A stretch of DNA of 64,000 nucleotides from Alphaproteobacteria bacterium (GCA_965248835.1 CBDFLJ010000002.1:128001-192000); one strand, 5' to 3'. Shown: positions 459-12,568, counted from the first letter of the stretch. Notes: generated by a model from the sequence alone, not told the origin. A program made the numbers and translations.

Positions 459-2555
459 TCATTGGTGGCCGTGCAGCAGTTCGGAATAGGTCGGCAGCGG
501 CCACAGACGGTGGTCCACGCGCTCCTCCAACCGATCCACCACCGCCCTTGCGGACTGCATCAGCGGTTTCATGGTTTCGTGGGCGTAGGACGCCGATTGC
601 GCCGGGCCATCCTCGGGAAACTCATCGAACGCCTCGGCCAGATTATCGGTCTCGGTAAGCAACTGCTGAACGAGATCCTCCTTCTCGCCGAAAAGCCTGG
701 AAGAAAAACCCGACCCGACGCCCGCGCGGACGTCTTCGATGGCCGCGGGGATGATGAAGGTCCGCAGGATGTTCAACAGCGTCCGCGCCTCGATCCAGAG
801 CTCCGTGGCGTACGCCTCTTGCAGGACGCCCTGACGCGCCGCAATCTCCCGTTCGTTGAAGATGCCCAAATCACCGAACAGTCTGATGTTCTTGACCGAC
901 GTCAGCTCCTGGTATGCCTCGGGGCTGCTCTTCAGATGGATCAGATCCCATCTTGCGGCGTGTTCATACAGCTCCTCGGAGTAGCCGTTGCCGCTGAACA
1001 ACGCGCCCTGGTTTTCCGCGATGGTCTCACGGATGACCTGGTCGACCTCCTTGCCGCCTTCGATCTCGTCGCACATGTGCTTCAGGCTGTCGGCCAGCGC
1101 CGCGTTGACCATCGTGAGCGGGAAGGCGATATGCTGGTTGCCGCCCACCGCCCGGAACTCGAACCGGTTGCCGCACCAGGGGAATGGCGCGGTGCGGTTG
1201 CGGTCCTCCAGATTGGCCCTGATGTCGGCGACCGGCGCCGATATCTCGATCTCCTTGTGCTGGGTTCCGTATGCGGTGAATTTGCCGCCTTCGGCGACCT
1301 TCTTGACATGCTTTTCCAGGAGCTCGCCGAGATGGAGCGTAATGATCGCCGGCGGCGCCTCCTGCGCACCCAGCCGGTGATCGTTGCCGGCGGTGGACAC
1401 CCCGCAACGCAGCAGATCACCGTGCTTGTTCACCCCGCGCAACAGCGCGGCGACGAAGGTGATGAAGCGCCGGTTGTCGTTTTCGGTTTTCCCGGGAACG
1501 AACAGATTGACGCCGGTGTCGGTGTTCAAGCCCCAGTTGTTGTGCTTGCCGTTCCCGTTGATGCCGGCAAACGGTTTTTCGTGGAACAAGATGGCGAAAC
1601 CGTGGTCGAAGGCCAGATCGCGCAGCACGTCCATCGCCAGCACGTTGGTGTCCGCGGCGAGGTTTGCCAAATTGAAGATCGGCGAGATCTCATGTTGCGC
1701 CGGCGCCACTTCGTTGTGGGTGCAGTGGATCGAAATCCCCAGCTCCCACATCTTCTCCCGCGCCGCCGCCATGTAGCGGTTCACCCGCGGCGGCAGCCTG
1801 GAGAAATAGTTGGTCGACATCTCCTGACCGCGAAGCGGCTTGGCCCCCACCAGAGTGCGTCCGGTGGCCACCAGATCGGGCCGCGCCAGATACTTCTCCC
1901 GGTCGATCAGGAAGAACTCCTGCTCCCAACCGACATTGCACACGACTTCCTTGGTGTCGGTGTCCCCGAGATGTTGCAACAACCGGAGGCTTTGTTCATT
2001 GACCGCAAGGTCGGCGCGCAACAGCGGGGTTTTCTGGTCGAGCGCCTCGCCGGTCCATGACACGAAGGCGGACGGGATGTACAGCGTTTGCCGGTAGACA
2101 AAGGGCGGTGATCCCGTATCCCAGCCCATATAAGCCGCCGCTTCGTGGGTTTCGCGGAGGCCTCCGTTGGGGAATGACGACCCATCGGTCTCGGTCTGGA
2201 ACAGTTGTGAGCCCGTCAAGTCTATGATCAACTTGTCGGTCGCGAAATCCACCGCCACGAATGTTTCGAGTTTCTCGCCGTGAATCGGCCCTCGTATGGG
2301 CGAGAACCAATGCGAATAGCCGATGCAGCCCTTCGACTGCGCCCACTCCAGGATGGATTTCGCCAACGCATCGGCGAAGTTCCTGTCCATCTGCAGCCCG
2401 GTCGCTCGGCACCGCGCGAACGCGTAATAGACGTCCGGATCGACCAGCTTTTTCAGGATCGCGTCGTCCAGCACATTGCTGTTCATGTTCGCCAATGCCT
2501 CGGGCAGGGCGACCGTCTGCGCCGGTGCGTCGTAGGTCGAATGCATCATGGCCAC
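459..2555 (-). CDS. glnN: Glutamine synthetase type III
   Basis: About 700 aa; motifs ETDGSSFPNGGLR, GWEQEFFL, HNEVAPAQHE, HEKPFAGINGNGKHNNW, HRLGAQEAPPAI, DRNRTAPF, C-terminal WPLPTY. Start moved to GTG 2555 (or ATG 2549) after GGAGG. Confidence 0.93.
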   Translation of the reverse strand: MAMMHSTYDAPAQTVALPEALANMNSNVLDDAILKKLVDPDVYYAFARCRATGLQMDRNFADALAKSILEWAQSKGCIGYSHWFSPIRGPIHGEKLETFVAVDFATDKLIIDLTGSQLFQTETDGSSFPNGGLRETHEAAAYMGWDTGSPPFVYRQTLYIPSAFVSWTGEALDQKTPLLRADLAVNEQSLRLLQHLGDTDTKEVVCNVGWEQEFFLIDREKYLARPDLVATGRTLVGAKPLRGQEMSTNYFSRLPPRVNRYMAAAREKMWELGISIHCTHNEVAPAQHEISPIFNLANLAADTNVLAMDVLRDLAFDHGFAILFHEKPFAGINGNGKHNNWGLNTDTGVNLFVPGKTENDNRRFITFVAALLRGVNKHGDLLRCGVSTAGNDHRLGAQEAPPAIITLHLGELLEKHVKKVAEGGKFTAYGTQHKEIEISAPVADIRANLEDRNRTAPFPWCGNRFEFRAVGGNQHIAFPLTMVNAALADSLKHMCDEIEGGKEVDQVIRETIAENQGALFSGNGYSEELYEHAARWDLIHLKSSPEAYQELTSVKNIRLFGDLGIFNEREIAARQGVLQEAYATELWIEARTLLNILRTFIIPAAIEDVRAGVGSGFSSRLFGEKEDLVQQLLTETDNLAEAFDEFPEDGPAQSASYAHETMKPLMQSARAVVDRLEERVDHRLWPLPTYSELLHGHQ

Positions 2556-2797
2556 CGGTTCTTCCTCCCCGATAGGTTCGCTGGTCGAGCCGAAACTACT
2601 GCATAACGCGACCGGCCGCCAAGGAGAACGATCCGCGCCGACGGCGCTGTCTGGCGCTGCGGGGCGGCGAGTATGAAGCTCCAATCAACTTGACCCTTGC
2701 GACGAAACCGGACAACAATTGTAGCGAACACTATGGACAACCGGATGCATGGCGATCGATCCGGAGCCGACATCTCGGACTGTCCGACACCGGGTGA

Positions 2798-3253
2798 AAC
2801 GTCGGTCCAGGGTTTGCTGAAATCGCTGTCCTCGAAATCTCGCTGACCAACGATCTTCAGGAGATCGCCGTCACGGCGGCGCAAATCGACGAATTTTGCG
2901 CTGCACGAGACCTGTCGCCGGCCATCGCCTTCGCCGTCAACCTGTCGGTCGATGAACTGCTGACCAACACGATCAGCTACGGCTACGACGACGGCACGCC
3001 CCATCGGATCGATATCGTGGTCCGCATGGACGGCAGCGTAATCGTCGTCGAGATCACCGACGATGCCAAGCCGTTCGATCCGTTCGAGGTCCAGAAACCC
3101 GATACCGACGCCGCGCTCGAGGATCGGCCGATCGGCGGATTGGGCGTCCACTTCGTCCGCGAGATGATGGACGGGTATCAGTACCGCCGCAGTCGGGGAC
3201 GCAACATCGTGACCTTGACCAAGGATACAAGGGGCGCCGCCGCCGGGACCTGA
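2798..3253 (+). CDS. RsbW/SpoIIAB-like anti-sigma factor Ser kinase (HATPase); start codon unresolved
   Basis: Frame open from 2798: ...LEISLTNDLQEI...VDELLTNTISYGY...DDAKPFDP...RPIGGLGVHFVREMMD; no in-frame ATG/GTG/TTG before 3017. Confidence 0.85.
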   Translation, partial: NVGPGFAEIAVLEISLTNDLQEIAVTAAQIDEFCAARDLSPAIAFAVNLSVDELLTNTISYGYDDGTPHRIDIVVRMDGSVIVVEITDDAKPFDPFEVQKPDTDAALEDRPIGGLGVHFVREMMDGYQYRRSRGRNIVTLTKDTRGAAAGT

Positions 3254-3294
3254 AGGATGAGGCGCCGGGCATCGGGCATGCCGGCGCCGCGCGG

Positions 3295-5241
3295 TCAGGC
3301 GGGCCCGCCGTTGTACCTCAGCACCAGACAGGTGATGTCGTCGGATTGCGGCGCCTCGCCGACGAATTCGGCGACCGCAAGGGTCACGTTTTCGATCACG
3401 ATGTCGACGGGGATCTCGTGGCCGACAGACAGCGCGGTTCGAATGCGTGCCTCTTCGAACATTTCGCCATCGCTGTTCATGGCTTCGGATATACCGTCGG
3501 TATACATGAACAGCGTGTCCCCCGCGGCAAGCGTCAGGCTTTTCTCTTCGTATGGCAGTTCCGGCAGGACGCCGATCGCGACCCCTCCGGTCAACGGCAA
3601 CACCTCGATCCCGCCGTCTTGTCGAACCAGGTACGGCGGATTGTGACCGCCATTGGCGTAGCTGAAATGGCCCGTTGACGGATCCAGAATGCCGTAGAAC
3701 AGCGTCACGAACAGATCGTGGGGGTTCTGCGAGCAGATCCCGTCATTGACCAGGCGCAGGCAGTCACCGGCCCGGTCGGTGTCCTGCGCGGTGGTGCGCG
3801 TAACCGTCCTTGCGATCGCCATGAAGAACGCCGCGGAGACGCCCTTGCCGGAGACATCGGCGATCACCACGCCGAGGCGGCCGTCCGGCAGGGTGAAGAA
3901 ATCGTAGAAGTCGCCGCCCATCTCGCGCGCCGGAGTCATCAGGGCGTGCCCCGAATAAGCGGTGTTTCGCGGCAAGGTCTTCGGCAGAATCGCGCCCTGG
4001 AGGGAATGCGCGATGGCGAGCTCGTCGTCCATGCGCTGTTTGGCCTGATCGAGTTGCGCGTTCTTCTGCTCCAGGTCCAACGTGCGCTCAGCGACCAGGG
4101 CTTCAAGATGTTCCTCGCGTGCCTGGACTTCGCGCGCCATCGTCTGGAAGACGCGGATCAGCCGTCCCAGCTCGTCCCGCCGGTGGCCGACGCGGTCGAG
4201 CGACTCCGGGGCGAAACTGCGCCGGTCCATCTCCTCGGCTGCCCGGGTCAGAGCCATGACCGGCCGCGTGATGCGGCGGGCCGACAATATTGCCGTCACC
4301 GAGCCGATCAGGAAGGCGGCGGCCGCAACGACCAGACCGAACATGAGGTAATCGGCGAGCAACCGGTCGAGCTGGTCACGCGGCATGTGGATGATCGCAA
4401 CGCCGGTGGCAACGCCGCCGCGGTCCAGGATGGGCGCGCCGACATGGAGCTCGTCCCGGCTCAGAAAGGACTGTGCGCCCGCACCGAGTACGCGGCCGGC
4501 GAGCGCCCTGTCGGCGGCCATAAACACCGGTTCCGGCGCGCCGCCGTGCGTGCCGCTGGCGACCGCGGCATTCACCTGAAGTGAATCGTCGACCACCCAG
4601 ATCGCCCGGACTCCGGGTTGCCCGGCCAGCGAGCCCAGCGTCGCCGCGAGGCTGATGATCTCGCGCAGGTGCGTGGTCTTGTCCACCAGGCTGCCGACCA
4701 GCACCGGCCCGCCGCCGCGGGTGCGGACGCCGACATATCGCAAGGGGCGCTCCAACCCGTCCCGCGGCACCGACTGGAGGGTGACGGAGAAACGGCGTCC
4801 CGACAGGAGGGTTTGCAAGACCGGTCCGTCGATATCCTCCAGAGCCATGTCGGTGCCGGCCTGGCTGAGCCCGTTGATGGCGCGCGCCGACGGCGTTCCG
4901 CTTTCGTCCAATATCCAGATGTCGTCGATAACGCTGTTCGCGGTAATCTCGGCGAGGTGAATGGCCAGCGCGCCGGCGTCGGGGCCGACGACCTCCGCCA
5001 AGTGGGCCAGCGCGATCGCCTGTGCCTCTTTCTCTTGCGCGACGACGCGGTCGATCTCGTCGGATATCAGCCCGGCTCGGTTGGCCTCGCCCGCGATCAG
5101 GCCGGCGACAAGCCGCGCTTGGTTCTCGGCCTGGCCGATCAGCGCATCGCGGGCCAGGAGGCCCAACGCTATCGCCACGCCGAGGATGGCAACGCCGACC
5201 GACGCCGAGACGATCAGGACCAGATGCCGGGACAGACTCAC
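3295..5241 (-). CDS. Membrane sensor with HAMP domain and SpoIIE/RsbU-type PP2C phosphatase
   Basis: Two TM segments flanking a large periplasmic region, HAMP (RRDELGRL), PP2C motifs MGGDFYD, VIADVSGKG, YTDGISEA, QSDDIT; GTGA overlap with upstream permease. Confidence 0.92.
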   Translation of the reverse strand: MSLSRHLVLIVSASVGVAILGVAIALGLLARDALIGQAENQARLVAGLIAGEANRAGLISDEIDRVVAQEKEAQAIALAHLAEVVGPDAGALAIHLAEITANSVIDDIWILDESGTPSARAINGLSQAGTDMALEDIDGPVLQTLLSGRRFSVTLQSVPRDGLERPLRYVGVRTRGGGPVLVGSLVDKTTHLREIISLAATLGSLAGQPGVRAIWVVDDSLQVNAAVASGTHGGAPEPVFMAADRALAGRVLGAGAQSFLSRDELHVGAPILDRGGVATGVAIIHMPRDQLDRLLADYLMFGLVVAAAAFLIGSVTAILSARRITRPVMALTRAAEEMDRRSFAPESLDRVGHRRDELGRLIRVFQTMAREVQAREEHLEALVAERTLDLEQKNAQLDQAKQRMDDELAIAHSLQGAILPKTLPRNTAYSGHALMTPAREMGGDFYDFFTLPDGRLGVVIADVSGKGVSAAFFMAIARTVTRTTAQDTDRAGDCLRLVNDGICSQNPHDLFVTLFYGILDPSTGHFSYANGGHNPPYLVRQDGGIEVLPLTGGVAIGVLPELPYEEKSLTLAAGDTLFMYTDGISEAMNSDGEMFEEARIRTALSVGHEIPVDIVIENVTLAVAEFVGEAPQSDDITCLVLRYNGGPA

Positions 5242-5870
5242 GTGTGCTGCTCCGCCAGGTGGACGCGCAAGCCCCGCATCACCAAGGTCACCGCGGCCGC
5301 GAAAGCGAGGAACCAGATCATTGCGTAAAGATAGACCCAGAACGAGAAATCGTTCCTGCCGATCGCGCCGATCACGGTCTCGGCCCGGTGGACGAGTTCC
5401 GGCACGCCAATGACCGAGGCGGTAGCGGAGGCCATGACGATGATCAGGAAATAGCTGGTCCAGGACGGCAGGAACAGCAGCGCTTCTGCGGTCTCTCGGC
5501 GTCTGAGGTGCCGCAGCGCGGCGAGCGCGTTGTCGGACACATAGCCGGCCACCGCGATCGCCAGCGCGAGCGATGCCTTGATCCAGGCCGGCACGGTCAC
5601 GACGACGCCAAGGAGTTCGAAGGTTCCGGGGACGGCATAGGCGAGATAGAACAGCATCACGAAGGTCGGCGCGCTGCGGGCGAACACCGTCAGCGCGCCG
5701 CCGCCCCGGCTGACGCCCGAAACGGAGCCGGCCCGCATCAACGCCAGCAGCAGCCCGATCGGCGTACCGATCGCCATCGCGGCCAGCGAGACGGCCATGT
5801 TCCAGCCGAACCCGCCCGCGAGGTAGGGCGTCCAGGTTATCAGCACGTCGGCAACATCGAGCATCGTCAT
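5238..5870 (-). CDS. Polar amino acid ABC-type permease (HisM/GlnP-like), degenerate EAA loop
   Basis: Hydrophobic protein, FARSAPTFVMLF (cf. RGTPLLVQLF), ASVIGVPEL; ATGA overlap with upstream gene. Confidence 0.8.
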   Translation of the reverse strand: MTMLDVADVLITWTPYLAGGFGWNMAVSLAAMAIGTPIGLLLALMRAGSVSGVSRGGGALTVFARSAPTFVMLFYLAYAVPGTFELLGVVVTVPAWIKASLALAIAVAGYVSDNALAALRHLRRRETAEALLFLPSWTSYFLIIVMASATASVIGVPELVHRAETVIGAIGRNDFSFWVYLYAMIWFLAFAAAVTLVMRGLRVHLAEQHT

Positions 5871-7477
5871 GACGCGTGGCCCCGCTGTTCCCAAAGGCGG
5901 AAGAGCTGGACCGTGAGGAAGACCAGTACGAAGTAGCAGATCAGCAGCAGGTTCATCATCACGTCGTCATTGCCTTTTTCGGCAACGATGGCGGTGCTGG
6001 CGTGCACCAGCTCCGGCAATGCCAGGGTGCTGGCCATCCCGGTCGCCTTGACGATGTTGACCGAATTGCCCATCACCGCGGCGTGGCACAGGCGCAGCGC
6101 CCGGCGGAACTCCCGGATTCTGAAGCCCAGCGCGCCGCCCGTGCCGGCGGCGACGTCCGCCGCCAGGGCGAACGAAACGGCATTGCTGGCTGCGGCGTAT
6201 AGCGACAACACCACGGATGTGACGGTGAATGCGTCGAGCGAGAAGCCGAGCGCCAGAATGACACCGCCAAGCCCGAAAAAGACGACATAGAGTTGCAGCA
6301 ACGGCGGCGTCATCCGCAAGACCGCGCAAAACGCATGCAGAAACCCACCGACGACCGGCACGCGCCGATGCATCAGCCAACCGAACACCGCGCCCAGGAC
6401 GATGCTGCCCATGACCGTCACGATCGACAGCGCGGCCGTCAGGGCCAGGCCGAAGAGAAAGACGTTGCGGTCCAGCGGGTCGTAGAGCAGGCTGACGTCC
6501 AGACCCGTCGCCTCCATCAGCATCAGGGATACCCCGGAAATGCCACCCAGTTCGCGGCCCGCGACCAGCGCGACCTCGCGGCATGCCAGCGGCCATCTTC
6601 CGGCGTCGTCGCGCCGGCAGACCAATTCGCCGGCCGCGTCGGTCTGCTGCCAAGTCGACCGGGCGCGCCGCAAATAGGGTGAGGGCGGCAACCCCCACCG
6701 CTTCTCCAGCTCTTGCAGGAAGCCGCCGCGGTGCCATCCGGCCAGCGTGTCGCCCAGCAGTCGATCCAGGCGGCTGCCCGCCTCTTCCTTGGCGATGGCG
6801 ATCGCCCAGGGTGAAACGAAACGCGTAGGCAAGGACACGCTGTAGCCGTCCCAGTCTCCGCTCGCCAGCTCATTCAACAGGTTGACTTCGTCGTACAGCC
6901 AACCGATGCAGTGCCCGTTGCGCAAGGCCAGCAAGGCCTCCCGCGTGGAGTTGAGGGAGATCGGCTCGACCAGGAGACGTTCGCGGGCGAGGCGATTCCA
7001 CAGCGAGCCCTGGACGCTGCACAGCGTCCGGCCCCGCAGGTCCTGCCAATCGGAGATCCGCGCATCCGGCCGCAACAGGACGTTGGCGCCGTCGCCGTAA
7101 TATTGCGGCTCGACCATGGTAACGAGCTCGCGGCGGCTGCGGGTGTCGCCCAGCGTGGCGACGATGACGTCGATTTCTCCGCGCTGGAGCTTCTGCAGCC
7201 GGTTGGCGCTGGTCACTGGTTTCAACCGCAGCGACACGCCGATGGCTTCGGCCAAGGCGCGGGCGACATCGGTATCGTAGCCGACCAGGGCGCCGCTGGC
7301 GTCGCGGAAGCCGAAGGGTCGGTAGTCGGCCTTGACCCCGGCAACCAGATAGCCGCGGCCGCGGATCTCCTCAAGCCGGTCGGCTGCGGCCGCGCCGACG
7401 CTGCACAGCCACACGCCGAATGCGATAAGCACGAAACCTGCATAGGGGCATGGGCGGTGCCGGCCAGAAGTGCTCAC
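5867..7477 (-). CDS. Fusion of family-3 amino acid binding protein and ABC permease
   Basis: Signal peptide, GVKADYRPFGF, GYDTDVA, LQRGEIDVIVAT, then TM domain with LRMTPPLLQLYVVFFGL and NIVKATGMAS; GTG start overlaps methyltransferase stop (GTGA). Confidence 0.85.
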   Translation of the reverse strand: MSTSGRHRPCPYAGFVLIAFGVWLCSVGAAAADRLEEIRGRGYLVAGVKADYRPFGFRDASGALVGYDTDVARALAEAIGVSLRLKPVTSANRLQKLQRGEIDVIVATLGDTRSRRELVTMVEPQYYGDGANVLLRPDARISDWQDLRGRTLCSVQGSLWNRLARERLLVEPISLNSTREALLALRNGHCIGWLYDEVNLLNELASGDWDGYSVSLPTRFVSPWAIAIAKEEAGSRLDRLLGDTLAGWHRGGFLQELEKRWGLPPSPYLRRARSTWQQTDAAGELVCRRDDAGRWPLACREVALVAGRELGGISGVSLMLMEATGLDVSLLYDPLDRNVFLFGLALTAALSIVTVMGSIVLGAVFGWLMHRRVPVVGGFLHAFCAVLRMTPPLLQLYVVFFGLGGVILALGFSLDAFTVTSVVLSLYAAASNAVSFALAADVAAGTGGALGFRIREFRRALRLCHAAVMGNSVNIVKATGMASTLALPELVHASTAIVAEKGNDDVMMNLLLICYFVLVFLTVQLFRLWEQRGHAS

Positions 7478-8322
7478 GGAGCGCCCGGAGCCCGAGGTCG
7501 GCTCACGATCAAGAAACCGTAGCCGCTGGCCACGGGCGCGAGCCGGCACGCCAGGTCGTCCAGTCGGCCGAGCAACGGCTTGCCGACAACAAGACTTTCG
7601 GGCAGCAGGCTCTCGGGTTCCATGCTCTCGATGCGGAAACCTGCGGCCGAGAGGTCGCGGTGTACCTCCGGCGGACGGAAGAGGTGGTAGAACAGCCGGA
7701 TCTCGTCGCGGCCGCGGCCGCGCGTATAGAGTATGTCGCCGGGCTCGAGTTCGCCGGCCCGCACCAGCGGGTCCGCCGCGCGTTGTTCGGCGCGAAACCG
7801 CCGTCGCGCATTCGGCAGGCCAAGGATCAGGACGCCGTCCGGTTTCAGCATTTCGCGCACCGCTCCGAGCAGGCGCATGCGCTCCGCCCGTCCGGCGACG
7901 TGCCCCAGAACCCCGAAAGTCAAAAGCGTGAGATCGAACGCGCAACGATACTTCTCGGCCAGCGCGGTCAGGTCGCCGTTCCGGATGACGAGCCGTCCGT
8001 CGCCCACGAACGCGCGCAGGCGCTCCGCCATCGTCTGGCACGCCGCCGGACAGACATCGTAGGCCACCCCGTTCGCCCGGGTCAGTTCCATCAGCGGCAG
8101 CGTGTAACGTCCCGTGCCCGCGCCAAAGTCGAGGAAGCGGCCTTCGGCGGGCAGACAGCGCAGCGACGTCCTCAGCGTGCGCCGGTTCGGGCGTGGATAG
8201 CGCTGGTCGTAAAGGCCGGAGGAGATGTAGGCCTCGTAACTGCCGGCCATGTCGGGCACTTCCGCCTGCGGTGCGGGCGTGTCGTGGTCCGGGACGCTAG
8301 CGGCGTCCCTGGGTGCGATCAT
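7474..8322 (-). CDS. Class I SAM-dependent methyltransferase
   Basis: Motif I FLDFGAGTGRY, LKPDGVLIL; start may be the later ATG at 8250. Confidence 0.85.
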   Translation of the reverse strand: MIAPRDAASVPDHDTPAPQAEVPDMAGSYEAYISSGLYDQRYPRPNRRTLRTSLRCLPAEGRFLDFGAGTGRYTLPLMELTRANGVAYDVCPAACQTMAERLRAFVGDGRLVIRNGDLTALAEKYRCAFDLTLLTFGVLGHVAGRAERMRLLGAVREMLKPDGVLILGLPNARRRFRAEQRAADPLVRAGELEPGDILYTRGRGRDEIRLFYHLFRPPEVHRDLSAAGFRIESMEPESLLPESLVVGKPLLGRLDDLACRLAPVASGYGFLIVSRPRAPGAP

Positions 8323-8411
8323 TGTCCCTCCGTCGGCCTCGGCTCATTGGGGGCTTGTCTCCGAAGCGACGACATCATTATGCTGCCGACATCGGGTCAA
8401 CCCTAATATTG

Positions 8412-8489
8412 GCGGTCCCGGTTGGCAATGCATTACGCAGTCCCGGTCGGCAATGCATAGTATTGCGGCGGTCCCGTTGGGCAAATTGC
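8412..8489. repeat. Three imperfect direct repeats GTCCCG(G)TYGGCAATGCAT in a divergent promoter region
   Basis: gtcccggttggcaatgcat 8415-8433, gtcccggtcggcaatgcat 8440-8458, gtcccgttgggcaaattgc 8471-8489. Confidence 0.8.
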
Positions 8490-8575
8490 GCGCTGGAATC
8501 GGCTCTGGAAGGGGCGGGCATGAGGACTTGCGGACGCGCAACGCCTGGATTGCCGATGGCGAAAAGGGGCAAAGG

Positions 8576-9478
8576 TTGAGACCGCGAGTCAAGGATCCGT
8601 TGCGACGCTGGTCGATGGCGGCGGTGCTGGTGTTGGCCGGGCTGGCGGCCCACGCCGGAGCGCACGCGGCCGATGGCGTCCTGGAACGGGTCGCGGCCGA
8701 GGGGGTGATTCGCGCGGGCACCCGGGCAAGCGCGGCGCCCTTCGCCCAGAAGACGGCCTCCGGAGAGTTCGAGGGATTTTCGGTCGACCTGCTCGAGGAG
8801 ATCCGCGCAGCCGCCCAGAGGACGGTCGGCCGGGCCGTCCGGCTTGCGCTTTTCGAAGTTACCCCGGCCGATCGGCTGCAGCGCGTCGCAGCCGGCGAGA
8901 TCGACATCGTCTGTGGCATCACCACGCCGACCTGGAAGCGGGAAGGTCTGGTGGATTTCTCCCTGCCGTTCTTCCGCGACGGGACCCGTGTGATGGTCTA
9001 TCGTGGGCGTGCTGGGCGCGTCGCAGACATCCACCGGCTCAAGATCGGCGTGGTCCAGGGCACCACCACCGTAGCGGTTGTCAAAGATCGGCTGCCCGCG
9101 GCCAGTCTGCGCGTTTACGCCAACATGGGCAATGCGATGCGCGGGCTGGAGACCGGCGAGGTCGAGGGCGTGGCCAATGTCGGCGTCGTGCTGCTCGGGC
9201 TGAGTGCACGCAGCAAGCCGCGGCGCAGCGTCGTGTTGTTGCCCAGGACCCGCGCGTTGGCGACGGAAACTCTGGCCTGTGTCCTGCCGCAGAACGACAG
9301 CCGTTGGCGGGATCTGATCAACCGGACCTTGGTCGAGATGTATCTCGACGTGGAAGACTTCCGCGGCCGTTACGAGGAAATCTACAACCGCTGGTTCGGT
9401 CGCGACAGTGCGCTGTTCTATCCGCTCGACCGCGGTACCCGCGCCTACCTTGCCGATATCTCGGTCTGGGCCAGGTGA
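8576..9478 (+). CDS. Family-3 amino acid ABC substrate-binding protein (Glu/Asp-binding-like)
   Basis: Signal peptide ...AAHAGAHA; GTRASAAPF, EGFSVDL, GEIDIVCGITT, VDFSLPFF; start TTG 8576 or ATG 8615. Confidence 0.85.
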   Translation: MRPRVKDPLRRWSMAAVLVLAGLAAHAGAHAADGVLERVAAEGVIRAGTRASAAPFAQKTASGEFEGFSVDLLEEIRAAAQRTVGRAVRLALFEVTPADRLQRVAAGEIDIVCGITTPTWKREGLVDFSLPFFRDGTRVMVYRGRAGRVADIHRLKIGVVQGTTTVAVVKDRLPAASLRVYANMGNAMRGLETGEVEGVANVGVVLLGLSARSKPRRSVVLLPRTRALATETLACVLPQNDSRWRDLINRTLVEMYLDVEDFRGRYEEIYNRWFGRDSALFYPLDRGTRAYLADISVWAR

Positions 9479-9501: not shown

Positions 9502-9539
9502 GTTCGATCCGGATCCCGGATCCCGGGATCGAATCGAAC
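9502..9539. repeat. GATC-rich inverted repeat/hairpin between binding-protein gene and amtB
   Basis: gttcgat-ccggatcccggatcccgggatcga-atcgaac. Confidence 0.6.
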
Positions 9540-9579: not shown

Positions 9580-10968
9580 ATGAACCGCCGCAAGGTTGGC
9601 CCTCCGGGGTCCAGGGCGCGGCTTGGTGCAGCTCTGCCCTTCGGCTTCGCGGCCGCACTCTCCCTGGCGCTCTTCTCCTCGGAAGCGCGCGCCGCGCTCG
9701 ATAGCGAGACCCAGTTCGTCCTGAACAGTTTTTCGTTCCTGGTGTGGGGCGCACTCGTGATGTGGATGTGCGCCGGCTTTACCATGCTCGAAGCGGGTTC
9801 GGTGCGCACCAAGAACGCCTCCGTGATCTGCCTCAAGAACATCGGCCTCTATTCTATCGCCGGGCTGATGTTTTACTTGGTCGGCTACAACATCATGTAT
9901 GTTGACGTCGAGGCGGGCGGCTGGTTCGGCTCCCTCGCACTCCTTTACGAGACCTCGGCCGAAGAAGTCGCCATGTTGCAGGGCGGGGCGGAGACGACGG
10001 CCGCGGTCGTCAAGACCGGCCATGCGACGATGTCGGGCTGAATTTTCCAGATGGTGTTCGTGGCCACGACGGCCTCGATCGTGTCCGGCGCCTTGGCCGA
10101 ACGGGCAAAGCTGTGGTCGTTTCTGGTCTTCGTTACCGTGCTCACGACGATCATCTATCCGGTCGTCGGCGCCTGGACGTGGGGCGGCGGATGGCTCGCC
10201 GAAATGGGTTTCAAGGACTTCGCCGGATCGACCATCGTGCACTCGACCGGCGGCTGGGCGGCGTTGGCCGGCGCCCTCGTCGTCGGCGCGCGGAAAGGCA
10301 AGTTCCGCCAAGATGGCAGCGTCAAGGCGACCCCGCCGTCGAACGTACCCGCGGTGACGCTGGGCGTGTTCATTCTCTGGCTCGGTTGGTTCGGTTTCAA
10401 CGGCGGTTCGCAGTTGGCGCTCGCCGGTGTCGTCGACGCGGTGGCGATCAGCAATATCCTGGCCAACACGAACCTCGCCGCGGCCGCGGGCGTGATGTCG
10501 GCGATGTGCTTGTCGCGGCCCATCCTGGGGCGCCTCGATCTGCTCGCGAGCCTGAACGGCGCTATCGCCGGACTGGTGGCGATTACCGCGGGGCCCGACA
10601 TCGTCGATCACTATTGGGCTGTCGTCATCGGCGCGGTCGGCGGCGCCGTATGCGTCGCCGGTCTGAAGCTCCTGGAGCGCTTCAAGATCGACGATGTCGT
10701 CGGCGCAATCCCGGCCCATCTGTTCGCCGGCATCTGGGGGACGCTCGCGGTTTGCATTGCAGGCGGCGGCGATCTGCTGGTACAAATTGCCGGAATCGCG
10801 GCCATCGGCGCCGCGGTATTCGGTGCCTCTTGGTTGACGTGGTCGGTCATAAAGTGGACGATTGGCGTGCGTACCACGCCGATCGTCGAGCAGTTGGGTC
10901 AGGATGTGGCGGAGTTGGGCATCGAGGCCTATCCGGAATTCGTGGTCGTGCCAGACGCCGATGACTGA
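9580..10968 (+). pseudogene. amtB: Ammonium transporter interrupted by an in-frame TGA at 10039-10041
   Basis: ORFs 9304-10041 and 10051-10968 share one frame: GFTMLEAGSVRTKN...MSG*IFQMVFVATTASIVSGALAER, DFAGSTIVH, WLGWFGFNGGS, IDDVVGAIPAH, AYPEF. Confidence 0.88.
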
Positions 10969-11069: not shown

Positions 11070-11408
11070 ATGGACGTTACGACCGAACGGCATGACGATG
11101 TTCTGTCCGCCGACGTGGGCGGGCGCATCGACGGATCCAATGTCGTCCAGTTCGAGGAAGCGATCAGAACCGCGATCGAGGACAGCGACCGCGCCGTGAT
11201 CATGGATTTCGGGAAGCTGGTATATATCAGCAGCGCGGGCCTTCGCGCCGTCCTGTTGACGGCCAAGTCCCTCCACAGCCGTGACGCCAAGCTGTTGCTT
11301 TGCTCGCTTTCGGGGCCGATCCGCGAGGTCTTCGAGATAAGCGGTTTTGACAAGATCCTGCCCATTCACCCGTCCCGGGCCGAAGCTCTCTCGTCTCTGG
11401 GCGGCTGA
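11070..11408 (+). CDS. STAS anti-sigma factor antagonist (RsbV/SpoIIAA-like)
   Basis: GRIDG, MDFGKLVYISSAGLR with phosphoacceptor Ser, EVFEISGF. Confidence 0.92.
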   Translation: MDVTTERHDDVLSADVGGRIDGSNVVQFEEAIRTAIEDSDRAVIMDFGKLVYISSAGLRAVLLTAKSLHSRDAKLLLCSLSGPIREVFEISGFDKILPIHPSRAEALSSLGG

Positions 11409-11561
11409 TGCCGGAGATACCGATCGCTTGCAGCGCCTGGCCTGGAGCGCGACGACGCCGTCCCGGATCGGGGATATCTCGTTGCGAGCCACCCTTTCGC
11501 CCGCTAGCTTCGAAGTGCCGGATCGAACGTCTATTCTCTATTTCGGAGATAACCAGACAGC

Positions 11562-11918
11562 ATGCTGAACGTTACAGAAGAAAAAGCCGCCTCTGTGGCC
11601 ATCGTCTTGATCGACGGCCGTGCCGATGGCGTGACGGCGCCGGACCTTGAAGACCGGATCGTGAAAATTGTCGAACGCGGCGATGTCGATGTGTTGCTTG
11701 ATTGTGAAAAGATGGAATACATCAGCAGCGCAGGGTTGCGTGTCCTTCTCATAGGCGCCAGAAAATGCGAACAGAACGGCGGCAAGCTGTCGATTTGTGC
11801 GCTGCAGCCCGATTGTAGATCGGTCATCGAAATCGGCGGATTTCAAACGGTAATCGATTGTTATGACACACGCGAAGCCGCCCTCGCGGCCGCAGCGCAG
11901 CGGAGCGCAACATGCTGA
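11562..11918 (+). CDS. STAS anti-sigma factor antagonist, second copy
   Basis: LDCEKMEYISSAGLRVLL, VIEIGGF. Confidence 0.92.
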   Translation: MLNVTEEKAASVAIVLIDGRADGVTAPDLEDRIVKIVERGDVDVLLDCEKMEYISSAGLRVLLIGARKCEQNGGKLSICALQPDCRSVIEIGGFQTVIDCYDTREAALAAAAQRSATC

Positions 11919-12568
11919 CATTTGCGGAAGAGATTTTGTTGCTGATGCTGGATGACGAGGACGGTTCGTTTCTGCCGGTTCGTGAAAGCGCTGTCGAATA
12001 TGCCCTCGCAGGCGCTGTGCTGATGGACTTGGCGTTCTCGAACCGGATCGACACCGACCCGGATCAACTCGTTCTTCTGGACAACAAACCGACCGGCCAC
12101 CCGGTCCATGACAGAGTTCTTGATCACATTGCGCGCTCGTCCGAGACCAAGGACACGAAGACATGGATCGAGACGATTGCCCGGCTTGAATCCGCGGATA
12201 TCAGGAACCAGGCTCTTTCCAGCCTGATCGACCAGAATATTCTCGAATCACAAGAGGAAAAATTCCTTTGGGTCTTCCGCGCACGGCGATATCCGACGAT
12301 TGACGGGCGCACGGAACGCGAAGTGAAGCGGCGCATCACCGATGTCCTGCTGTCCGAAGCGGTGCCGGACCCCAGGGATGTAGCAATCGTCGGCCTGGCC
12401 GATGCCTGCGATCTGCTGCGCGAGGTGTTTTCCGACCGGGAGATCAACCGGATACGCCCGCGCATCGATCAGATCCGCAACCTGGATCTCCTCGGTCGCG
12501 AGGTTAGCGGCGCCGTCCTGGAAATCGAACGTTCGATCGCCATGGCGATGATGCATGCACCGCACTGA
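11912..12568 (+). CDS. GPP34/GOLPH3 (Vps74)-family protein
   Basis: LTFAEEILLLMLDDE, LAGAVLMDL, KFLWVF..RRYP, PDPRD pattern of bacterial GPP34 proteins; overlaps STAS stop. Confidence 0.8.
   Translation: MLTFAEEILLLMLDDEDGSFLPVRESAVEYALAGAVLMDLAFSNRIDTDPDQLVLLDNKPTGHPVHDRVLDHIARSSETKDTKTWIETIARLESADIRNQALSSLIDQNILESQEEKFLWVFRARRYPTIDGRTEREVKRRITDVLLSEAVPDPRDVAIVGLADACDLLREVFSDREINRIRPRIDQIRNLDLLGREVSGAVLEIERSIAMAMMHAPH

Follow-up and report, generated by a model that had tools for sequence, protein, structure and literature searches.

A putative motor-less receptor core derived from a polar-amino-acid ABC importer, encoded with a partner-switching phosphatase in an alphaproteobacterium

This analysis concerns a stretch of 64,000 nucleotides (the window) from an alphaproteobacterial genome (Alphaproteobacteria bacterium, GCA_965248835.1, CBDFLJ010000002.1:128001-192000; the contig is called C2 below) and, within it, four minus-strand genes at 3295-8322 in which two degenerate membrane domains of ATP-binding cassette (ABC) importer type are encoded between a methyltransferase and a membrane-bound sensor phosphatase. 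The first gene of the unit (MT, 7474-8322) encodes a class I S-adenosylmethionine (SAM)-dependent methyltransferase of 282 amino acids (aa). The second (5867-7477, with a GTG start) encodes a 536-aa protein, here called FUS, that runs from a signal-anchor through a periplasmic polar-amino-acid binding domain (SBP_bac_3) into a degenerate importer domain of five transmembrane (TM) segments; the third, PERM2 (5238-5870, 210 aa), is a second such domain from which the EAA coupling loop has been excised, and the fourth (3295-5241) is a 648-aa HAMP-SpoIIE phosphatase laid out as TM1, a predicted periplasmic double-Cache (dCache) domain, TM2, HAMP and PP2C. That the four genes are joined by 4-nt stop/start overlaps had been claimed in an earlier reading made from the window's sequence without database searches (the sequence-only reading), and this is borne out: the overlaps are GTGA (7477-7474), ATGA (5870-5867) and GTGA (5241-5238), and all three junctions are spanned by short-read contigs from four runs of one sample (2964-6360; 7084-8631), contigs which are not independent of the window since those runs are probably its own source.

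The four-gene unit and its permease-like domains

Two sets of loci underlie the comparisons. Counts out of 80 refer to loci kept from a scan of one genome per species (136 relatives were returned), which span Defluviicoccus and other Rhodospirillales, Azospirillum, Zavarzinia, Kaistia, Bosea, Aquamicrobium, Accumulibacter and Competibacter/Contendobacter; 71 of them are informative in that they have enough sequence to judge whether a PP2C gene lies downstream. A separate set comprises 10 loci from the 14 related genomes, among 40 compared, that carry FUS. The identity of FUS across these 14 of 40 genomes, 69-83%, points to strong purifying selection.

Do FUS and PERM2 still have what a permease of a working importer has? 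Neither transmembrane domain matches PF00528 (BPD_transp_1) at E<=10; in the same scan three canonical polar-amino-acid permeases of relatives score 71-75 bits. With TIGR01726 (the HEQRo 3-TM N-terminal model, cut-off 42.2 bits) FUS scores 36.9 and PERM2 37.8 bits, both below the cut-off, as are the 41.6 and 40.0 bits obtained in a six-frame search of the genome. PERM2 is without any Pfam match, and its profile finds a single match in the PDB, ArtQ of Art(QN)2 (4yms_D, E 4e-8), in an alignment from which some 20 residues are absent at the EAA region. Its AlphaFold2 model (pLDDT 83.3) superposes on ArtQ 4yms_C/D with a TM-score of 0.70 at 21-22% identity (MetI gives 0.57), so that PERM2 is modelled with the type I importer transmembrane fold; the transmembrane domain of FUS likewise appears from its sequence to be of importer type.

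The EAA loop is the docking site of the ATPase motor on ABC-importer permeases, and it is among the best-conserved stretches of working ones. We scored the motif as EAA-x3-G-x9-I-x-LP between TM3 and TM4. Eight canonical near relatives were aligned, with PF00528 confirmed on the four that were scanned (P0175, P0163, P0189, P0218), and all eight carry the family motifs SDN, PPWMNY and MASSTAS together with a complete EAA loop; against them, 10 of 10 PERM2-type representatives and the PERM2 of the window show a gap of 20-21 residues at the loop. Aligned to three canonical controls, 81/81 PERM2 sequences show gaps of 11 and 9 residues, and in the PERM2 model TM3 (95-123) is joined to TM4 (133-150) by a single 4-residue helix. 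The FUS loop falls short of that of the controls by 8-15 residues, and an 11-residue gap precedes the EAA position in 80/80 orthologues. At that position itself the window reads L-A-A, and the E is variously L (32 of the 80 orthologues), E (27), H (10) or D (9), with the +6 Gly retained in five. The Ala after the E position is kept in all 80, so a vestige of the motif does remain there.

The two loops have fared differently in another respect. That of FUS is the least conserved part of its membrane domain (mean top-residue frequency 0.49 vs 0.66), and the short loop of PERM2 is well conserved (0.71 vs 0.67 elsewhere), which suggests a new role for it. The transmembrane cores of both proteins are highly conserved. 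Taken together, FUS and PERM2 compare with a working ABC importer in predicted fold but fall below the family thresholds, lack an intact EAA loop and have no cognate ATPase. The sequence-only reading had described both permeases as devoid of a recognisable EAA motif and had named alignment to PF00528 with scoring of the motif as the check; the strings it quoted for the two proteins are found exactly as quoted, neither permease matches PF00528, and the alignment confirms that the loops are not intact, with the residual A of FUS as the only qualification.

A search of 1.84 billion representatives with the PERM2 profile yielded 1115 matches at E<=1e-3 and 53 at E<=1e-30, canonical relatives also being among the high scorers. 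Some more distant PERM2-like domains (among P0229, P0242, P0293 and P0149) are fused to NMT1_3, a binding-protein-like domain, in proteins of 645-657 aa, and one in the same group is fused to a C-terminal SBP_bac_3 domain.

The same early reading held that no ABC ATPase occurs in the operon or anywhere in the window, and this stands. The genome has 112 matches to PF00005, none of them within C2:128001-192000, the nearest being at C2:27812-28264 and at C2:195121-195603 (the latter 3 kb beyond the window end), and an ABC_tran domain is absent from all 48 window open reading frames (ORFs) scanned. Among relatives, an ATPase gene inside the module is found in 0/80 loci. Some ABC-ATPase match within about 9 kb is seen in 29 of the 80, and five of these loci were scanned with Pfam: in each, the match or the genes on either side of it are part of a different transporter (Zur-ZnuC-ZnuB, PotA-like, iron-type, MalK-like and, in one case, a separate polar-amino-acid system at a distance of 4 kb), so that as hidden partners these nearby ATPases were rejected in the five loci scanned. 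In the other 24 the matches are 23-40% identical to a polar-amino-acid ATPase and are positioned outside the module. The genome has one full-length polar-amino-acid-type ATPase (C2:1381852-1382643), in a complete Aap-like operon (C2:1378326-1382646) 1.25 Mb away. A fragment of another of this type, 55% identical to the Aap-like ATPase over 120 residues, is seen at C2:1579348-1579707 in an open frame of 130 aa.

Fusions, gene order and the partner-switching components

In six of the 10 loci from relatives' genomes PERM2 and the phosphatase are a single reading frame of ~855 aa, on one of which (L013:9598-12165) both HAMP and SpoIIE were confirmed, and a protein search returned 24 clusters, 22 of them 853-855 aa long with PF07228. 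Across the 80 species-level loci PERM2 stands alone in 60; in 12 it continues in frame into PP2C and in 8 into an RsbW-like kinase domain (HATPase_c_2), and four further loci have an RsbW-like kinase gene directly 3' of it. The PERM2 tree requires two changes for each type of fusion and places the window in a well-supported clade of 16 rows, 12 fused and four unfused; by this membership the overlapping PERM2/phosphatase pair of the window is the split counterpart of the fusion in its nearest kin.

Gene order is similarly constant. All 10 loci of the separate set keep MT-FUS-PERM2-PP2C preceded by SBP2, a divergent gene for a periplasmic binding protein. FUS lies directly 5' of PERM2 in 80/80 loci, with its binding domain and transmembrane domain in one frame in 79, and a dCache-type PP2C follows PERM2 in 66 of the 71 informative ones. 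Of the 80 loci, 60 have a methyltransferase gene (49 of them at a distance of 3 kb or less), 71 have SBP2 no more than 4 kb from PERM2, 52 have a STAS gene and 40 an RsbW-like match. In Accumulibacter and Competibacter loci the SBP2 gene sits between PERM2 and PP2C. One contig binned as Anaerolineae (Chloroflexota), L056, has a module that hardly differs from the one in an alphaproteobacterial metagenome-assembled genome (L059), probably through a binning error rather than transfer. The module is also present in the phosphorus-removal organisms Accumulibacter, Competibacter, Contendobacter and Defluviicoccus, an occurrence that may be due to biased sampling or to the passage of genes between organisms in sludge.

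The phosphatase itself matches SpoIIE (PF07228) at 179.7 bits over positions 1-191 of 192, with HAMP at 28 bits, and the PP2C Asp/Gly columns are invariant in 26 orthologues. Between its transmembrane segments (7-25 and 301-319) residues 25-310 give an AlphaFold2 model of pLDDT 82.5 that Foldseek matches with probability 1.0 to 2p7j, 3lid, TlpQ, Tlp3 and PctA (TM-score 0.35-0.45), which is consistent with a double-Cache domain, that is to say a long N-terminal helix and two PDC modules held between two TM helices; the Pfam dCache models give no sequence match in the phosphatase. Given this predicted domain of its own, the permease relic is not the sole possible input. Identity with SiaA (NF038263) was considered and rejected: the score is 114 bits vs a cut-off of 700, and the match is limited to the HAMP-PP2C half.

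Convergent with the phosphatase gene, at 2798-3253 on the plus strand, is a gene for an RsbW-like serine kinase or anti-sigma-type protein, whose HATPase_c_2 domain (PF13581) scores 87.1 bits over profile positions 2-127 of 127. The first ATG, GTG or TTG in its frame is the GTG at 3017, and at 2843 the window has CTG where the nearest relative has TTG; in three further close relatives the kinase frame is likewise without an early ordinary start. Two plus-strand genes encode STAS proteins, the one at 11070-11408 being of anti-sigma-antagonist type and immediately 3' of an ammonium transporter gene, and the other at 11562-11918; they match STAS at 67.3 and 61.4 bits respectively. The serine of the SSAGLR motif, which by analogy to SpoIIAA and RsbV we take to be the phospho-site, is invariant in 6/6 aligned STAS proteins, both of those in the window included. 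With a PP2C phosphatase, a HATPase_c_2 kinase, two STAS proteins, and binding domains as well as a predicted dCache domain, the locus would thus have a full set of partner-switching components together with extracytoplasmic inputs of two kinds. The kinase, the two STAS genes, SBP2 and the double-Cache domain of the phosphatase had all been overlooked at first reading.

Binding proteins, methyltransferase and nitrogen-related neighbours

The binding domain of FUS matches SBP_bac_3 at 81 bits. Among PDB entries it comes closest to arginine- and glutamine-type binding proteins, and a GlnPQ binding-domain entry, 6h30, is one of its matches. SBP2, an orphan periplasmic binding protein encoded at 8615-9478 on the plus strand, divergently from MT, matches the same family at 76 bits. 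Its ORF is open from 8249 and its likely start is the ATG at 8615, ahead of a signal peptide, with the hydrophobic leader at ORF residues 123-141. Its assignment as GrrP (TIGR04262) was rejected, the score of 134.6 bits being under the cut-off of 190. From likeness to arginine-, glutamine- and glutamate-binding proteins the ligand class is predicted to be an amino acid or a derivative of one.

The methyltransferase, which in the sequence-only reading could modify the ligand or the sensor, matches Methyltransf_12/23/25/11 at 32-40 bits, with weak PDB matches to the small-molecule methyltransferases 5bp9, 3g2m, MfnG and CcbJ, and sequence searches of Atlas and of the PDB for its function gave nothing specific. 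By sequence it is classed as generic class I SAM type.

Two neighbours in the window have a bearing on nitrogen, and both are treated here as neighbours of the module and as a possible output of the system. The type III glutamine synthetase gene (GSIII; 459-2684, minus strand; GSIII_N at 161 bits plus Gln-synt_C) is adjacent in 8/10 relatives' loci and in 15/80 species-level loci, and the ammonium transporter gene (Amt; 9580-10968, plus strand; Ammonium_transp at 272.9 bits), the sole Amt gene of the genome, in 7/10 and 18/80 respectively. This sole Amt is followed by the two STAS genes rather than by glnK, and the single P-II gene (C2:922256-922573) is 780 kb away, from which a GlnK-like role for STAS can be conceived. 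Adjacency of Amt and STAS recurs among relatives.

Amt of the window has an in-frame TGA at 10039-10041, at a Trp conserved as SDWFFQ in 11/11 relatives, where the window reads SG*IFQ (the asterisk is the stop). Contigs from two of the sample's runs cover the site and agree with the window; either Amt has recently become a pseudogene, or the assemblies of this one sample have an error in common. The sample-run contigs differ from the window in being without 13 (or 6) bases at 9506 and without one base at 11540, both intergenic. Beyond the STAS genes a gene of the GPP34/GOLPH3 family (11912-12568, plus strand) overlaps the 3' end of the second by 7 nt.

The neighbours differ by lineage, being Amt and GSIII here, GlnE in L032 and a GlgX-like enzyme in Accumulibacter. 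At L032:12694-15702 the GlnE gene (glutamine synthetase adenylyltransferase) is ~1 kb 3' of the phosphatase gene and convergent with it. In Accumulibacter (L085:12636-18527) the genes 3' of the module encode a GlcNAc-2-epimerase-like protein, STAS, a GlgX-like isoamylase, STAS and an RsbW-like kinase. In the lineage of the window the output of the switch is possibly nitrogen assimilation, to judge from the adjoining Amt and GSIII.

A proposed receptor core weighed against its alternatives

The proposal that we consider fairly probable, from sequence comparison, is that FUS and PERM2 are the motor-less receptor core left from a polar-amino-acid importer, and that this core feeds a partner-switching phospho-relay. 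It is the loss of the EAA loop, combined with association or outright fusion with a phosphatase or a kinase, that argues for a receptor rather than a pump. The sequence-only reading had suggested that the permeases and the binding protein, rather than making up a transporter, may be a ligand-sensing complex in control of the phosphatase, and the fusions, the EAA-loop gap, the absence of an ATPase and the synteny with PP2C lend that suggestion support; the survey of neighbourhoods it had called for is the source of the 66/71 informative loci with PP2C 3' and the 0/80 with an ATPase gene within the module.

How might such a device work? FUS and PERM2 would form the heterodimeric membrane core of the former importer, its EAA loops shortened or excised and its ATPase gone. 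An amino acid in the periplasm, or a compound akin to one, would be bound by the tethered domain of FUS and probably by free SBP2 as well, and the loaded binding domains would dock on the core; a conformational change would then pass within the membrane (in the unfused form through a presumed contact) to the TM1/TM2-HAMP unit of the phosphatase, here translationally coupled to PERM2, or, in some lineages, to the fused kinase instead. Permeases of this type are oriented N-out/C-in, and the topology fits, with a 5-TM core whose C-terminus is inside followed by TM1 (in to out), the predicted dCache domain, TM2 and cytoplasmic HAMP-PP2C. The activity of the phosphatase towards phospho-STAS would be set by the core (the direction is presumed), the RsbW-like kinase would phosphorylate STAS, and the phosphorylation state of STAS would control a downstream target, here possibly nitrogen assimilation.

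Several observations weigh against this proposal. Among the 48 window ORFs scanned there is no sigma factor or other defined output. In 5/71 informative loci MT-FUS-PERM2 is without an adjacent PP2C, an RsbW-like kinase and a STAS gene taking its place in one of them (L058), and the permease pair can therefore work with other partners; in Azospirillum rugosum (L076:9698-12643) what follows PERM2 is a 981-aa Peripla_BP_6/MscS-type channel protein, not PP2C. The phosphatase could sense ligands through its own predicted double-Cache domain without the relic. The high conservation of the cores, with E-A-A in the FUS of 27/80 loci, is compatible with some residual substrate passage, and the Aap-like ATPase elsewhere in the genome could in principle be shared. 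The kinase gene is without an ordinary start codon and Amt has an in-frame stop, which may mean that the locus is partly in decay in this genome.

Could the core, then, still move its substrate? As a transceptor or facilitator it would pass substrate without ATP, in the manner of a uniporter or a channel or by virtue of binding-protein affinity, with MT, in the cytoplasm, acting on the compound taken up and the PP2C signal reporting flux and not external concentration. The conserved cores would suit this, as would the translational coupling of MT, present in 60/80 loci, to FUS and the weak likeness of MT to small-molecule N- and O-methyltransferases in the PDB, and sensing of flux by a transporter is reported for BceAB-BceS; however, cores of type I ABC importers are not known to transport in the absence of their ATPase, and MT is missing from 20/80 loci that retain the rest of the module, so that we hold a facilitator to be quite unlikely. 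An ordinary ABC importer served by a distant ATPase, such as the Aap-like one at C2:1381852-1382643, with the phosphatase merely co-transcribed as a functionally separate sensor, is very improbable indeed. A polar-amino-acid-type ATPase is there to be borrowed, the binding domains resemble normal amino-acid binding proteins and FUS has its A-A vestige (E-A-A in 27/80 orthologues), but it would have to be borrowed by a pair in which the PERM2 coupling loop is excised in 81/81 sequences and that of FUS is shortened and variable, where PF00528 gives no signal and no module of the 80 has an ATPase; in-frame fusion to PP2C or kinase is, moreover, hard to square with independence.

The remaining alternative takes the relic for scaffold only, anchoring or co-localising kinase and phosphatase while sensing is left to dCache, perhaps with SBP2 docking on it in the way of binding-protein-dependent sensor kinases. 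It can draw on the complete dCache fold predicted for the phosphatase, on the position of the SBP2 gene directly 5' of PP2C in Accumulibacter-/Competibacter-type loci, and on the conservation of the short PERM2 loop (0.71 vs 0.67), as might be expected of a new docking surface. A pure anchor, however, would not be expected to keep a binding domain in frame and under selection in FUS in 79/80 loci, and we judge the scaffold distinctly improbable. At the other extreme is an enlargement of the receptor proposal, in which motor-less ABC receptors, their coupling helix cleanly excised, would be widespread and undescribed and would signal laterally within the membrane to both the kinase and the phosphatase of a partner switch, and in which, in the Defluviicoccus-like lineage of the window, that switch would replace GlnK at Amt, with external amino acids directly gating both ammonium uptake and GSIII by way of STAS proteins; this we offer as a speculation that is unlikely to hold.

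A receptor core of the kind proposed would have affinities with several known systems without coinciding with any of them. HisQMP2 is a PAAT-type importer and GlnPQ one whose binding domains are fused to the permease. The likeness to PAAT type I importers lies in the ArtQ-like modelled fold of PERM2 and the amino-acid-type SBP_bac_3 domains of FUS and SBP2, FUS also joining binding domain to permease as GlnP does; unlike them, the window pair is without an ATPase partner or PF00528, has its EAA loop excised or shortened, and in relatives has PERM2 fused to phosphatase or kinase. In LuxPQ and TorTS, which are binding-protein-dependent sensor kinases, there is a parallel for SBP2 being encoded beside a membrane sensor with a tandem PAS/Cache-like periplasmic domain, but the output domain here is PP2C and a permease relic is also present. 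UhpC and yeast Ssy1 are further sensors derived from or coupled to transporters, and RsbU/RsbW/RsbV is the partner-switching system of Bacillus.

The chlamydial RsbU is a partner-switch phosphatase with a periplasmic sensor domain (PMC11619594). With it, with Bacillus RsbU/RsbW/RsbV and with SiaA-type switches the window locus has in common a SpoIIE-family PP2C, a HATPase_c_2 kinase and STAS with a conserved serine, and its phosphatase has the order periplasmic sensor, TM, HAMP and PP2C of membrane sensor phosphatases; it differs from partner-switching systems in the addition of an ABC-importer relic as an extra putative input (fused in relatives), and from the SiaA system of Pseudomonas aeruginosa in that no SiaC/SiaD-type output is nearby in the window. 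In CbrA an SLC5 domain is fused to a histidine kinase (PMC13022988, PMC7096432). There, as in BceAB-BceS, a transporter fold serves as a signalling input or is linked to one, in some cases through a fusion of genes. The window differs in its transporter superfamily, the core being of the type I ABC-importer kind and coming with a binding domain, and in having a Ser/Thr partner switch instead of a two-component kinase. BceAB still hydrolyses ATP, in contrast to FUS and PERM2 from which the motor appears to have been lost altogether. A search of open-access literature and bioRxiv main texts (subscription journals and supplements being outside it) found no description of an ABC-permease-like input to a partner switch nor of an Amt-STAS pairing.

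ABC importers are usually defined by membrane domains coupled to an ATPase. If the proposal is true, the present pair would show plainly how a pump can evolve into a receptor, with binding domain and core kept and the coupling loop precisely lost. To our knowledge the signals of the partner-switching systems of Proteobacteria are mostly unknown, and such a core would provide those systems with a defined extracellular input. The natural occurrence of fused, unfused and kinase-fused forms, together with cultured carriers in Kaistia, Zavarzinia, Aquamicrobium and Azospirillum (among them Kaistia soli DSM 19436, Zavarzinia aquatilis and Aquamicrobium aerolatum DSM 21857), makes the idea directly testable, and with Accumulibacter, Competibacter and Defluviicoccus being organisms of wastewater phosphorus removal, how they respond to amino-acid or nitrogen supply would be of practical interest as well.

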